A stretch of DNA of 28,814 nt, from UHGV virus genome UHGV-0268820; one strand, given 5' to 3'. This document shows, piece after piece, positions 7,544-9,909 of the stretch. The translations under genes and the position numbers were made by a program. The stretch's first letter is position 1; each line of letters starts with the position of its first letter. The stretch comes from a virus. The notes beneath the pieces are model-generated. The model saw nothing but the letters and a program-made list of their open reading frames with translations. It was not told the origin of the DNA and searched no databases.

Positions 7544-8192
7544 TGGCAGCAAATACCGAAATATTTGGGTAGTTGGCGATCTGCACGGATGCTACACGAA
7601 CCTGATGAAAAAACTGGAGACGATAGGATTCGACACCCAAAAAGACCTGCTTATCTCGGTTGGCGATTTGGTCGATCGCGGTGCAGAGAACGTCGAATGC
7701 CTGGAATTAATCACATTCCCCTGGTTCAGAGCTGTACGTGGAAACCATGAGCAAATGATGATTGATGGCTTATCAGATCGTGGAAACGTCAATCACTGGC
7801 TGCTTAATGGCGGTGACTGGTTCTTCAATCTCGATTACGACAAAGAAATTCTGGCTAAAGCTCTTGCCCATAAAGCAGATGAACTTCCGTTAATCATTGA
7901 ACTGGTGAGCAAAGGTAAAAAATATGTCATCTGCCACGCCGATTATCCTTGTGACGAATACGAGTTTGGAAAGCCAGTTGATCATCAGCAGGTAATCTGG
8001 AACCGCGAACGAATCAGCAACTCACAAGACGGGATCGTGAAAGAAATCAAAGGAGCGGACACGTTCATCTTTGGTCATACGCCAGCAGTGAAACCACTCA
8101 AGTTTGCCAACCAGATGTATATCGATACCGGCGCAGTGTTCTGCGGAAATCTCACATTGATTCAGGTACAGGGAGAAGGCGCGTGGGCATAA
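7521..8192 (+). CDS. ninI: NinI serine/threonine protein phosphatase (lambda PPase-like, calcineurin-like metallophosphatase)
   Basis: From ATG 7521: [33 protein letters not shown]...[16 protein letters not shown]...RGNHE - metallophosphatase motifs GDxHG, GDxxDRG, GNHE. The track ORF starts upstream at 7446, but the lambda-type start is MRYYEK. Confidence 0.85.
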
Positions 8193-8701
8193 GAGAACTA
8201 AACCTCACCAAAGAACAGCATGAGTGGCTGAATGGCTGGCTTGAACTGTGGGGCGCATGGGTTTATTCAGGTCGTCTGGAAAAGCGCATGAGCAGCGTAA
8301 TAGCGAAGTTCATGGAGAGCGTAGAGCCGGGAAGAGTTATGACAAGGCCAATGTGTAATGATGATGATGGAATGTTGATTTCTCAGGTCGTCGATTCCGT
8401 CATGTACATTGACAAGAAAGCCTTTGGCATCCTCCTCAGCTACTACGCTCATGGTTCATCTAAGCGAGCAATTGCATCCTACTATCACGCGACTGCAAAG
8501 CCACGCAAGATGTGTGGACGTGGTGGCGAGGGATGGAGAAAACCTTCACTGGCAACCTGTAGAAACGAAATTGACGACATCCTGAAAGCGTCGTTATTTG
8601 TTTTGTACCAACCAATGCAAAATGCTTTCAAAATGCGTAAACGTGTTGAGAAAGTTAAGCATGTTGCTGTTAAAAGCCTTGACATGCAATTAGCCATTTA
8701 G
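8183..8701 (+). CDS. late-gene antiterminator Q, QuuD/Q21-like family (not lambda-Q type)
   Basis: 172 aa from GTG 8183 (RBS GGGAGAAGG); motifs [17 protein letters not shown] and LLSYYAHG resemble the E. coli QuuD family; located directly before pR' and the lysis genes. Confidence 0.7.
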
Positions 8702-8708
8702 CCATAAT
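8679..8708 (+). promoter_or_regulatory. candidate late promoter pR' (sigma70 TTGACA-18-CATAAT) overlapping the 3' end of Q
   Basis: TTGACA at 8679-8684 and CATAAT at 8703-8708; position at the end of Q is as expected for a lambdoid pR'/qut region. Confidence 0.45.
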
Positions 8709-8718
8709 TAGAAGGTAA

Positions 8719-8763
8719 GCTGCCGTTAGTGACTCTTAAGTTGCAACGGTGGCTTTTTTATTT
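8719..8763 (+). terminator. candidate tR'-like intrinsic terminator shortly downstream of pR'
   Basis: 9-bp stem GCUGCCGUU/AACGGUGGC (two G-U pairs) with a 17-nt loop, followed by TTTTTTATTT (8754-8763). Confidence 0.45.
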
Positions 8764-8855
8764 GCACAACAGGTAAGAGCATTGAACCCGCAGACCTCGC
8801 GGAATTGGTGAAAGGTGCCGCGCAGTGCTCTTATCGTTGTGGCAGCACAACGATA
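8764..8855 (+). repeat. late-leader element copy 1 (GCACAACAGGTAAGAGCATT ... AGTGCTCTT) ending in a perfect 10-bp palindrome
   Basis: Shares a 21/22-nt head motif and the AGTGCTCTT tail motif with copy 2; a 10-bp inverted repeat TATCGTTGTG-gcag-CACAACGATA lies at 8832-8855; resembles the lambda post-tR' leader as recalled. Confidence 0.5.
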
Positions 8856-9023
8856 GTTTTCGTCAGAGTTGGCGACTTTGCGGTTTTTTAGAAACTGATC
8901 ACAAAGATAAATGCAAACGAAGAAATGTATCTGGCCGTAGCTTAACCGCTAAACACCAGTGAGGTATTCCAGTTCCTCATCAACGAATCTGGCGCACTGG
9001 CCCGGTGTGATTAATAATGGGCA

Positions 9024-9130
9024 CACAACAGGTAAGAGCATTAAAGAACTGGCAAAGAGCTTAACGGTCTGCGAAAGCATTTCTTAGTGGCACAACTGGC
9101 CGGTACAACTGAGTGCTCTTTCCGGTGTGG
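9024..9130 (+). repeat. late-leader element copy 2 (direct repeat of copy 1, about 260 bp downstream)
   Basis: CACAACAGGTAAGAGCATT at 9025-9043 and AGTGCTCTTTCCGGTGTGG at 9112-9130; head and tail are mutually complementary (GTAAGAGCA/TGCTCTT), predicting a long-range stem. Confidence 0.5.
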
Positions 9131-9585
9131 TGAATGCGCAGGCTGATGCGTTAATCAGGTGAACGAGACACCCGCCGGTCCGTGATATGGCACACCGTGC
9201 CGGTCATATCTGCCGCGGTTAGGTTTACGAGGATTTCGTAAAGCTGGTCTAGGGTGAAGCCGTGAAAGCGGAGGAAGTAAAACGAGGCGTCGGTACACGC
9301 CTATCGTCATTAAGTCGGAGTTCAGCACCGACCGCCACAACCCAAACTGAGCCGTAGCCACTGACTATCCTGAATTCATCAGTGATAGTTACGCTGCGGC
9401 CTTCTACACATGATCTTCGTGAAAGCGGGTGGCAGGAGGTTGCGCTAACAACCTCATGCCGTTTTGCCCGTGCATATCGGTCACGAACAAATCTGATTAC
9501 TAAACACAGTAGCCTGGATTTGTTCTATCAGTAATCGACCTTATTCCTAATTAAATAGAGCAAATCCCCTTATTGGGGGTAAGAC

Positions 9586-9909
9586 ATGAAGATGCCAGAA
9601 AAACATGACCTGTTAGCCGCCATTCTCGCGGCAAAGGAACAAGGCATCGGGGCAATCCTTGCGTTTGCAATGGCGTACCTTCGCGGCAGATATAATGGCG
9701 GTGCGTTTACAAAAACAGTAATCGACGCAACGATGTGCGCCATTATCGCCTGGTTCATTCGTGACCTTCTCGACTTCGCCGGACTAAGTAGCAATCTCGC
9801 TTATATAACGAGCGTGTTCATCGGCTACATCGGCACTGACTCGATTGGTTCGCTTATCAAACGCTTCGCTGCTAAAAAAGCCGGAGTAGAAGATGGTGGA
9901 AATCAATAA
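9586..9909 (+). CDS. S: holin S with dual-start motif (S107 antiholin from ATG 9586, S105 holin from ATG 9592)
   Basis: [62 protein letters not shown]... essentially identical to recalled lambda S; Met-Lys-Met dual start present. Confidence 0.9.

Follow-up and report, generated by a model that had tools for sequence, protein, structure and literature searches.

A conserved RNA with features of a transfer-messenger RNA coding piece in the Q–S spacer of a lambdoid prophage

The window studied here, a stretch of 28,814 nucleotides of the virus genome UHGV-0268820, contains a lambdoid prophage in which the stop of the antiterminator gene Q is at 8701 and the start of the holin gene S at 9586. The question raised by this locus is what occupies the 884 bp in between. 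A preliminary description of the spacer had measured this length correctly, and had concluded that it carries two diverged copies of a structured element and a perfect palindrome but no coding cargo. This last conclusion was misleading, since a conserved RNA gene, which includes a reading frame of 10 codons, fills the interval between the two copies. The core of this RNA, about 170 nt long (8852–9023), resembles the message part of transfer-messenger RNA (tmRNA, or SsrA) and begins with an arm complementary to host tmRNA. The reading that we put forward, tentatively and at slightly less than an even chance, is that it is a tmRNA derivative without the tRNA-like domain: an RNA made late that would anneal to host tmRNA, mask its tag template and offer its own.

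First of all, the distribution of the core was considered. A sensitive BLAST search with 8843–9150 matched 716 phage records at 70–88% identity, which included Felixounavirus, Kuttervirus, N4-like Gamaleyavirus, Chaseviridae, P1, SSU5, Akiravirus, lambdoid and P22-like phages and Klebsiella siphoviruses, and almost no annotation was present beneath the match in these records. Among complete Escherichia coli genomes, 850 of 5426 (about 16%) matched, with 766 places on plasmids, mostly P1-like or SSU5-like, and 150 on chromosomes. Going by these matches, the core is among the most widely conserved non-coding stretches of enterobacterial phages. The RNA was often found within or beside tRNA genes (wV8, ZCKP8, Akira, P1, SSU5 and SSEM1). 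In P1 (NC_005856, about 68791–69066) it lies in the leader of the C1-controlled ban operon, after the 'dicF-like region' and before trnA/trnT, and in wV8 it is preceded, at a distance of about 7 nt, by a consensus-like promoter (TTGACA-17-TATAGT). Short hypothetical coding sequences overlie the RNA on either strand in some records, such as wV8 gene 49 (586–726 of locus L005, minus strand), ZCKP8 gp60/gp61 (L008), Y2 gp37 (82–189 of L258) and a 'polyubiquitin-A' in vB_EcoP-611R6; these are mutually inconsistent and probably spurious.

The feature that relates the core to tmRNA is a short frame and the bases that precede it:

8913–8945, plus strand: start-less tag-like frame of 10 codons and a stop, GCA AAC GAA GAA ATG TAT CTG GCC GTA GCT TAA (ANEEMYLAVA*)
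8908–8912, plus strand: resume-codon context TAAAT, with invariant T at −5 and A at −4 (columns T57, A58 and A59 of alignment A2)

The counts given for the frame and for the structure refer to 28 distinct homologous sequences. In all 28, GCA AAC GA. opened a frame of exactly 10 codons plus stop. The 15 different peptides encoded followed the pattern A-N-[DE]-x-x-x-[LMR]-x-[VA]-A and included ANEEMYLAVA (the window and HK620), ANDDVVLMAA, ANDNVFLAVA, ANDNTFLAVA, ANDDLMMVAA and ANDNEMRAAA, the tag of E. coli being ANDENYALAA. Variation was concentrated at third codon positions, with an entropy of 1.08 versus 0.57 and 0.44 at first and second positions. The last alanine used all four of its codons, TAA, TGA and TAG all occurred at the same stop position, and the other two frames were not conserved. 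In addition, 27 of the 28 sequences contained no in-frame ATG, GTG or TTG between the preceding stop (or the 5' end) and GCA. The invariant T and A at −5 and −4 are the counterparts of U85 and A86 of E. coli tmRNA, which set the resume frame. All these features point to a translated frame, and the substitution pattern shows it to be under coding-type selection without a conventional start. An ATG lying one base into the tag frame was also considered as a start and rejected, because the resulting peptides vary in length and the ATG is absent in SFP10. Conventional protein-coding cargo was likewise rejected, as the open reading frames of the spacer reach at most 68 amino acids (the longest on the minus strand) and are not conserved. 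This agrees with the preliminary description, which had reported neither a tRNA nor a credible open reading frame: ARAGORN identified no tRNA or tmRNA in the window, and neither ARAGORN nor Rfam RF00005 gave a cloverleaf tRNA.

Downstream of the tag, RNAalifold and inspection identified the following helices:

8931–8959, plus strand: helix A, CTGG (8931–8934) with CCAG (8956–8959), enclosing the stop codon; RNAalifold, compensation in 3 of 4 pairs
8960–8979, plus strand: hairpin P5, TGAGG (8960–8964) with CCTCA (8975–8979); RNAalifold, compensation in 3 of 5 pairs
8969–8992, plus strand: pseudoknot a, P5 loop CCAG (8969–8972) with CTGG (8989–8992); double changes in 4 of 4 pairs
8993–9022, plus strand: pseudoknot b, stem 1 CGCACT (8993–8998) with GGTGTG (9004–9009) and stem 2 GCCC (9000–9003) with GGGC (9019–9022)

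Over the 28 sequences, 93.8% of the cells of this structure could pair versus 81.4% after shuffling (0 of 500 shuffles reached the observed value), with 30–47% in slid controls, and double compensatory changes were found in 16 of 23 pairs (80 cells). Pseudoknot a varied as CCGA/TCGG, CCAA/TTGG, CTAG/CTAG and GTCG/CGAC, and stem 1 of pseudoknot b as CGCAG/CTGTG, CGCAT/ATGTG and CGTAC/GTATG, whilst stem 2 of SFP10 is of wholly different sequence. The single-sequence fold of the core did not differ from shuffled sequences (z = −0.85), so that the case for structure rests on covariation. As the covariation demonstrates, the core RNA is under structural selection. Upstream of the frame, in the 5' arm, RNAalifold found no conserved internal helix.

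The relationship with tmRNA was also visible in Rfam searches. In every locus tested the matches were weak, were all to tmRNA models (tmRNA_permuted, beta_tmRNA and tmRNA) and were centred on the tag and the following hairpin. The best scores, all below threshold, were 33.7 bits for tmRNA_permuted (threshold 47), 22.3 for beta_tmRNA (84) and 15.4 for tmRNA (47). Positions 206–304 of beta_tmRNA aligned with the tag and the hairpin/pseudoknot region, which suggests that the core descends from tmRNA, and the alignment to the permuted model deleted its tRNA-like part. At gathering level the Rfam matches in these loci were limited to ordinary tRNA genes of other phages. ARAGORN called no tmRNA either in the window or in 14 homologous loci; in HK620, CUS-3 and HK75 it called neither a tRNA nor a tmRNA. 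By membership the RNA is not a tmRNA; by its sequence features it resembles a tmRNA coding piece. With the one-piece tmRNA (RF00023) it shares the start-less frame GCA AAC GA.., a tag of the form A-N-D/E-x-x-x-..-A-A/V-A followed by a stop, U and A at −5 and −4, a stop codon placed in a hairpin, pseudoknots downstream, and a post-tag part that aligns weakly to the models. However, it is phage-encoded, about 170 nt long instead of about 360, and lacks an acceptor stem, G3:U70, a T arm and CCA; it has no pseudoknot 1 of its own, but instead an arm antisense to host pseudoknot 1 and the start of the tag; and it scores 11–34 bits against a gathering threshold of 47.

A similarity of this kind could also be left by a non-functional fragment of bacterial ssrA, for instance after phage integration at that gene. 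Many phages and islands reportedly integrate into ssrA and carry a piece of it, and part of our sequence is indeed similar to tmRNA. Nevertheless, fragments derived from attP come from the 3' end of ssrA and not from the tag region, the RNA is present in virulent, non-integrating phages (Felixounavirus, Kuttervirus and N4-like), and it shows compensatory changes and conservation of codon type. We give hardly any credence to the relic reading.

The part of the RNA that precedes the frame is the arm, in which three blocks face the E. coli ssrA transcript:

8852–8903, plus strand: 5' arm of the RNA, with invariant GTTTTCG (8856–8862), GCGAC (8872–8876) and TTTGCGG plus a T run (8877–8889)
8854–8864: arm block UAGUUUUCGUC; ssrA partner GACGAAAACUA, nt 96–106
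8872–8877: arm block GCGACU; ssrA partner AGUCGC, nt 86–91, which takes in the −1 triplet and bases 1 and 2 of the resume codon
8878–8890: arm block UUGCGGUUUUUUA; ssrA partner UAAAAAGCCGCAA, nt 68–80, the 3' half of pseudoknot 1

The first 50 nt or so are well conserved among the homologues. GUUUUCG(U) is the exact complement of ACGAAAAC, codons 3–5 of the E. coli tag; it is the sole complement of at least 8 nt to ssrA in the RNA of the window, and in every variant a contiguous perfect complementarity of 7–11 nt to ACGAAAAC(UA) was found, reaching codons 3–6. Duplexes were predicted with RNAduplex for the arm alone, using the ssrA sequence of an E. coli RefSeq genome and shuffled controls, as unrestricted runs of the whole RNA against ssrA returned meaningless duplexes of genome length and were discarded. 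Nucleotides 1–52 of the arm of the window paired with ssrA 54–108 at −46.8 kcal/mol (z = −4.9, 0 of 200 shuffles). Arms of 46 or 52 nt gave −41 to −49 kcal/mol at this same site (z = −3.3 to −6.6, 0 of 200 shuffles) in the window, HK620, Akira, several IMG/VR lineages, N4-like phages, P1 and SFP10, and shorter duplexes of −24 to −27 kcal/mol at ssrA 75–108 in wV8, SSEM1, SSU5 and L051. The N4-like phages showed the complementarity in a different register, GCGAUUAU with AUAGUCGC. In SFP10 (Kuttervirus, L006 about 585–600) the invariant 5' motif is tandemly duplicated, GTTTTCGTTTTCG.

The possibility that the arm folds back onto the tag region of its own RNA was rejected. Its pairing with host tmRNA was stronger in 28 of 28 sequences (mean −30.1 kcal/mol, versus −16.7 with the own message region), and GCGAC has no partner in the own sequence. 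Across 104 tmRNAs of Enterobacterales and Vibrionaceae, the stretch targeted by the arm hardly varies. Pasteurellaceae and Idiomarinaceae have a diverged target, and for them a weaker duplex is predicted. In Chaseviridae the arm reads AAGUUUUCGU in Erwinia and Pantoea phages and GUAGUUUUC in E. coli, Yersinia and Aeromonas phages, a change in the direction expected from ssrA, which is ..AAAACUUU in Pantoea sp. B65 and ..AAAACUAC in E. coli. Arm positions that pair with the host were not conserved differently from the others (p = 0.57), since the invariant resume context belongs to the unpaired set. These alignments and predicted energies show that the RNA has a conserved arm whose complement in host tmRNA spans pseudoknot 1, the resume codon and the initial codons of the tag.

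How would such an RNA act? In the scheme that we propose, it would be made in this prophage only during lytic growth, when RNA polymerase modified by Q passes the terminator tR', and it would be cut out or stabilised by the hairpins at its flanks, which would define or protect its ends. The 5' arm would then anneal to host tmRNA at about 55–108, unfold pseudoknot 1 and cover both the resume codon and tag codons 1–6. Native tmRNA has its resume codon some 10 nt past pseudoknot 1; a simple hairpin can take the place of this pseudoknot, and two-piece tmRNAs exist in nature. Here the intermolecular duplex would stand in for pseudoknot 1, with the phage resume codon and frame presented about 10–20 nt beyond it. 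Ribosomes rescued by host tmRNA-SmpB would add the phage tag (ANEEMYLAVA in this case) instead of ANDENYALAA or, at least, host tagging would be blocked. That the phage RNA in fact turns the host rescue machine into a bimolecular tmRNA, and puts phage-chosen tags (ANEEMYLAVA, ANDDVVLMAA, ANDNVFLAVA and others) on rescued proteins, is possible but on balance doubtful.

Several points weigh against template replacement. All the evidence is comparative or thermodynamic. We know of no precedent for a template tethered solely by an intermolecular duplex and with a free 3' end, and neighbouring tRNA-like modules could be the source of a phage-encoded acceptor partner. The divergent L096 and L058 have their best duplex elsewhere on ssrA, though they keep the GUUUUCG block. 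The co-variation in Chaseviridae concerns one position, the Pantoea species compared is not the actual host, and the other Erwiniaceae scanned have the E. coli type of tag. The tag of Salmonella tmRNA, which we take to be ANDETYALAA with an ACC codon, would place one mismatch in the seed, yet Salmonella phages keep GUUUUCG. Finally, RNAduplex takes no account of what it costs to open host pseudoknot 1, nor of any structure in the arm, and the shuffled controls kept mononucleotide content only.

The complementarity of the arm would fit equally well with an antisense RNA that acts purely as an inhibitor. Such an RNA would pair with host tmRNA, possibly leading to cleavage by RNase III, and would stop trans-translation in lytic growth, the frame being a leftover of a tmRNA fragment. 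A tRNA-like domain was not found, and phage interference with trans-translation has a precedent in mycobacteriophage DS6A, whose tmRNA reduced to a tRNA-like domain is reported to inhibit host tmRNA (PMC4131195). The frame, however, does not behave as a leftover, which would not have stayed at 10 codons plus stop throughout all the diverged homologues, nor be expected to show variable third positions, four alanine codons, three different stops and the invariant U(−5)A(−4) resume context, and the downstream pseudoknots are also under structural selection. We regard this explanation as unlikely, although it is the main rival. The RNA of DS6A is also a partial tmRNA borne by a phage, but it has kept the tRNA-like domain alone, whereas ours is the opposite half, the message domain plus an antisense arm. 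Phage antisense RNAs that act in trans, such as DicF of Qin, are likewise short, pair with host RNA and are released from longer transcripts by processing, as proposed here; they differ in that our proposed target is a stable tmRNA and not an mRNA, the complementarity extends over about 35–45 bp and not a short seed, and the RNA contains a translatable frame.

Whether the phage itself encodes an acceptor domain was examined. Odd tRNA-like genes that ARAGORN misses lie just 3' of the RNA in wV8 (L005 765–843), SFP10 (L006 about 800–900) and EC1-UPM (L007 about 1080–1150). That of wV8 has G3:U70, a UCU anticodon loop, a long variable arm and an Rfam tRNA score of 31.7 bits; that of SFP10 has no D arm, carries a stem capped by GAAA and terminates in C-CCA. 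As a conserved partner these genes were rejected, since they are not conserved between lineages and the counterpart in L126 is an ordinary tRNA-Arg. The hairpins of the spacer as acceptor or T arm, and the palindrome as the closed acceptor stem of a permuted tmRNA, were also rejected: G3:U70, a T arm and a conserved CCA are missing, covariation is confined within each hairpin (L133), and in wV8, L096 and SSU5 the RNA is not accompanied by these hairpins. Altogether, the search for an acceptor domain in the hairpins, the palindrome, the structured module that follows them (module B) and the neighbouring tRNA-like genes revealed no defining features and nothing conserved across lineages.

These results bear on the alternative that the RNA is the coding piece of a phage-encoded two-piece tmRNA, with the acceptor function on another, tRNA-like RNA of the phage (candidates are the flanking hairpins, module B and the nearby odd genes). 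The usual position of the RNA in or next to tRNA genes or tRNA-like modules, the hairpin tail followed by ACCA in N4-like phages, the G3:U70 of the tRNA-like gene adjoining it in wV8, and the fact that the best of the weak Rfam matches are to permuted (two-piece) models would all agree with it. Nevertheless, no partner is conserved across lineages, and in L096 the core is followed by a simple hairpin and then by a protein gene. The outer stem of the hairpins reads C1-G72/A2-U71/C3-G70, without a T arm and with CCA absent in most; the Rfam alignment deletes the tRNA-like part of the model; covariation links the two sides of each hairpin and not the upstream tail with the downstream head; and the complementarity of the arm to host tmRNA is left unexplained. 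Consequently, we consider a two-piece phage tmRNA rather improbable. The permuted tmRNAs of alpha- and beta-proteobacteria and cyanobacteria (RF01849–51 and RF04321) do show that message and tRNA-like parts are separable and can be joined by base pairing. There, a single gene of one organism gives both pieces, which pair by way of the acceptor stem and P2, whereas the phage RNA has no adjoining acceptor piece and its proposed partner is complete host tmRNA, through pseudoknot 1 and the tag region of the latter.

The core is bracketed by the two elements noticed in the preliminary description:

8765–8841, plus strand: hairpin element copy 1, of CUS-3/HK75/lambda type, with outer stem CACAAC/GTTGTG, inner stem GGTAAGAGCATTG/CAGTGCTCTTATC and a 38-nt variable apex
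9024–9129, plus strand: hairpin element copy 2, of HK620 type (97% identity to HK620), with a 67-nt variable apex
8832–8855, no strand: perfect 10-bp palindrome TATCGTTGTG-GCAG-CACAACGATA, arms 8832–8841 and 8846–8855, at the junction of the copy-1 tail and the next module

Both copies were recovered independently by a repeat finder, as a direct repeat of their heads, CACAACAGGTAAGAGCATT(G/A)AA, at 8765–8786 and 9024–9045 (22 nt, 95% identical), with tails AGTGCTCTT.. at 8824–8842 and 9112–9130 (19 nt, 84% identical). The complementarity of head and tail that had been claimed was found by an inverted-repeat search inside each copy. The long hairpin predicted from it was borne out for copy 1 (−36.9 kcal/mol, z = −3.2, 0 of 200 shuffles as good); copy 2 adopts the same fold shape, but alone it did not differ from shuffled sequences (z = −1.25). 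Comparison with homologues, the check suggested for these stems, gave a positive result. Among the stem cells of 23 distinct elements, taken from many phages, 94.1% pair, versus 86.5% in shuffled sequences (0 of 500 reaching the observed value) and 35–63% in slid controls, and 7 of 19 pairs had changes on both sides, as in the variants AAGCTGC/GCAGCTT, AATGACA/TGTCATT, AAGGCAA/TTGCCTT and AAGGGTA/TACCCTT of AAGAGCA/TGCTCTT. The seven inner stem pairs had served to select the elements; the pairs outside this block had not, and they include a GC/AU/CG/UA series at columns 20/25. In L133 the upstream element is unlike the downstream one, and the head of each pairs with the tail of the same element; therefore, the elements are local hairpins. 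By their covariation they are real RNA-type hairpins, as had been proposed.

The palindrome was present as described. However, it is not a property of copy 1, as it arises where the copy-1 tail ..ATCGTTGTG abuts the CACAACGAT.. that precedes the next module, and this left junction, ..ATCGTTGTG GCAG CACAACGATAGTTTTCG.., recurs in four IMG/VR contigs (L031, L033, L084 and L102). A simple pattern scan flagged 8831–8856, followed by TTTTCG, as terminator-like. In the minimum-energy fold the copy-1 tail pairs with the copy-1 head and not with its palindrome partner; both hairpin copies are devoid of a U tract, and the T run after the palindrome is part of the invariant GTTTTCG of the RNA.

The hairpin element was found once each in lambda, CUS-3 and HK75, twice in HK620, and also in P1 and many other phages, with conserved ends and unrelated interiors. 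The proposed comparison with the lambda Q–S region located its copy at 44787–44862, directly after the 6S RNA terminator tR' and overlapping the end of the annotated orf-64; to our knowledge it has no assigned function. As one copy follows tR' in lambda, CUS-3 and HK75, none of which carries the tmRNA-like RNA, the hairpins would have a late-leader role of their own, for which a processing site, a stabiliser and a recombination boundary are candidates. Three further observations concern these elements. The variable apex of some of them (L013 about 840–880, L065, L043 and L033) holds canonical-looking T arms, GGTTCGAnTCC, which may be tRNA debris or may mark the apex as an insertion hot spot. 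P1 has an additional element after trnT (L135 1357–1443), on the strand opposite plp. Upstream of the RNA, HK620 has a third, diverged hairpin (1403–1490 of locus L003) with outer stem CTATC/GATGG instead of CACAAC/GTTGTG; therefore, the GAT(A/G)G that opens the arm of the RNA doubles as the 3' strand of that hairpin.

With real, covarying hairpins, one of which stands right after tR' in phages without the RNA, the view that the spacer holds no cargo, the hairpins being a duplication scar or leader elements for processing or stability of the late transcript, has some basis. What argues against it is that the interval between the copies is very widely conserved and has its own covarying structure and frame, and that the copies are of two lineages with unrelated apices of 38 and 67 nt. 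Its no-cargo part is contradicted, and the reading as a whole we judge quite improbable.

The origin of this arrangement could be traced by comparison with related phages. Segments 8601–8842 and 9112–9700 match CUS-3 at 98% identity and 8851–9150 matches HK620 at 97%. The two CUS-3 matches overlap by 19 bp in that phage and, therefore, the window carries 288 extra bp bounded by the tail repeat, which is present at both junctions of the gain. In other words, the window corresponds to CUS-3 plus an HK620-type module placed between the hairpins, which is equally absent from HK75. No phage record and no complete E. coli genome covered at least 80% of the spacer. Homology with Sf6 ends at 8764 and resumes at 9345, and the slot corresponding to 8765–9344 is filled in Sf6 by tRNA-Asn and tRNA-Thr, in agreement with the cargo site that had been suspected here. 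The suspicion that the duplication is a scar held in part. From these alignments, the two copies mark a gain of cargo and not an empty scar; this is supported by the 288 bp added to CUS-3. A plain duplication did not stand, as the copies are, to judge from their unrelated interiors (38 and 67 nt), two different element lineages brought together by recombination.

The remainder of the spacer and its boundaries comprise the following features:

8183–8701, plus strand: Q antiterminator gene, phage-21 type, 172 amino acids, about 98% nucleotide identity to the annotated Q of CUS-3, HK75 and Sf6
8679–8708, plus strand: late promoter pR', TTGACA, 18-nt spacer, CATAAT; 11 of 12 matches in a promoter scan
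8717–8763, plus strand: tR', which ends the short leader transcript, a hairpin (−20.3 kcal/mol, z = −3.3) and then a U run, with the qut region upstream
9127–9341, plus strand: module B, second recurring structured element, here of CUS-3 type, with conserved ends and variable interior
9345–9585, plus strand: conserved S-gene leader ('bsq3' boundary sequence), common to lambda, Sf6, CUS-3 and HK75
9586–9909, plus strand: holin S, lambda type, an open reading frame that gives the context of the spacer

Over the end of Q and the 64 bp that follow it, identity to Sf6, CUS-3 and HK75 is about 98%, and their records have pR', the qut region and tR' annotated in this stretch; the pR' sequence is that annotated in the Sf6 and HK75 records, and tR' is annotated at the homologous position in both. 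As in a phage-21-type late leader, pR' overlaps the end of Q and is followed by the qut region and a terminator hairpin. The late leader of lambda (pR'-qut-6S RNA-tR') also has a hairpin directly after tR', but pR', qut and tR' of the window are of phage-21/Sf6 type. The CUS-3 record has the leader stretch that precedes the hairpin annotated as boundary sequence bsq4, and the S leader as bsq3. A single hairpin is present in lambda, CUS-3 and HK75, which lack the tmRNA-like RNA, whereas in the window two hairpins bracket the RNA. With regard to length, the spacer is 676 bp in lambda (Q ends at 44509 and S starts at 45186), 1021 in HK620, 596 in CUS-3, 509 in HK75 and 460 in Sf6, so that the ratio to lambda is 1.3 and not more than two as had been stated. 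If the proposed role of the RNA is included, the Q–S spacer as a whole may be viewed as a mosaic late leader with RNA cargo, in the order pR', tR', hairpin, structured RNA of about 170 nt, second hairpin, structured module and S leader; we hold this joint picture, cargo and function together, with just under even confidence.

Copies of module B, with conserved ends GTGGTGAATGCGCAGGCTGATGCG ... GTCGGAGTTCAGCACCGAC CGCCACAAC, also follow the hairpin in HK620, CUS-3, ZCKP8 and many IMG/VR contigs. Its layout is tRNA-like: the outer stem is GTGGTG/CACCAC, and there are two hairpins, one of 4 bp with a loop of 8 nt and one of 5 bp with a loop of 9 nt; the latter varies in a compensatory way (GCCGG/CCGGC, GCAGG/CCTGC and GTCGG/CCGAC), and in HK620 the module is followed by GCCA. 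Just upstream of the S start, at 9516–9567, the S leader contains an inverted repeat, GGATTTGTTCTAT / ATAGAGCAAATCC (13 nt, 92% complementary), which lambda also has and which presumably belongs to the known region of translational control of S.

Concerning previous knowledge, Rfam 15 holds no family for the core RNA. No description of a tmRNA-like or anti-tmRNA RNA in these phages was found in the papers searched, nor any of the six tag peptides looked for. The phage tmRNAs listed in them are those of mycobacteriophages and Bacillus phage G only, plus the DS6A form with the tRNA-like domain alone (PMC4131195), and a database of 2025 lists 79 phage tmRNAs, obtained by tools for which a tRNA-like domain is a requirement (PMC11915505). 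At the very least, a widespread, unannotated structured RNA family is added to phage genomes. The core RNA would be a derivative of a known one, tmRNA, and template replacement, if real, would be a categorically new mechanism.

The lambdoid Q–S cargo slot, known for tRNAs, stx and porins, is evidently also able to hold a tmRNA-like RNA, and the hairpin that follows tR' in lambda marks module boundaries. The RNA family also accounts for several of the doubtful short 'hypothetical protein' annotations that overlie it. Its carriers are hundreds of sequenced phages, among them therapeutic and model ones such as Felix O1-like phages, Kuttervirus, N4-like phages, P1 and HK620. Were the RNA expressed and active in the proposed way, a new layer of phage–host conflict at ribosome rescue would be added. 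The message part of tmRNA would then be suppliable in trans, which would bear on the choice of the resume codon and would provide a natural tool to alter the tag, and this would be the first case of a virus that reprograms trans-translation by means of a template in trans.

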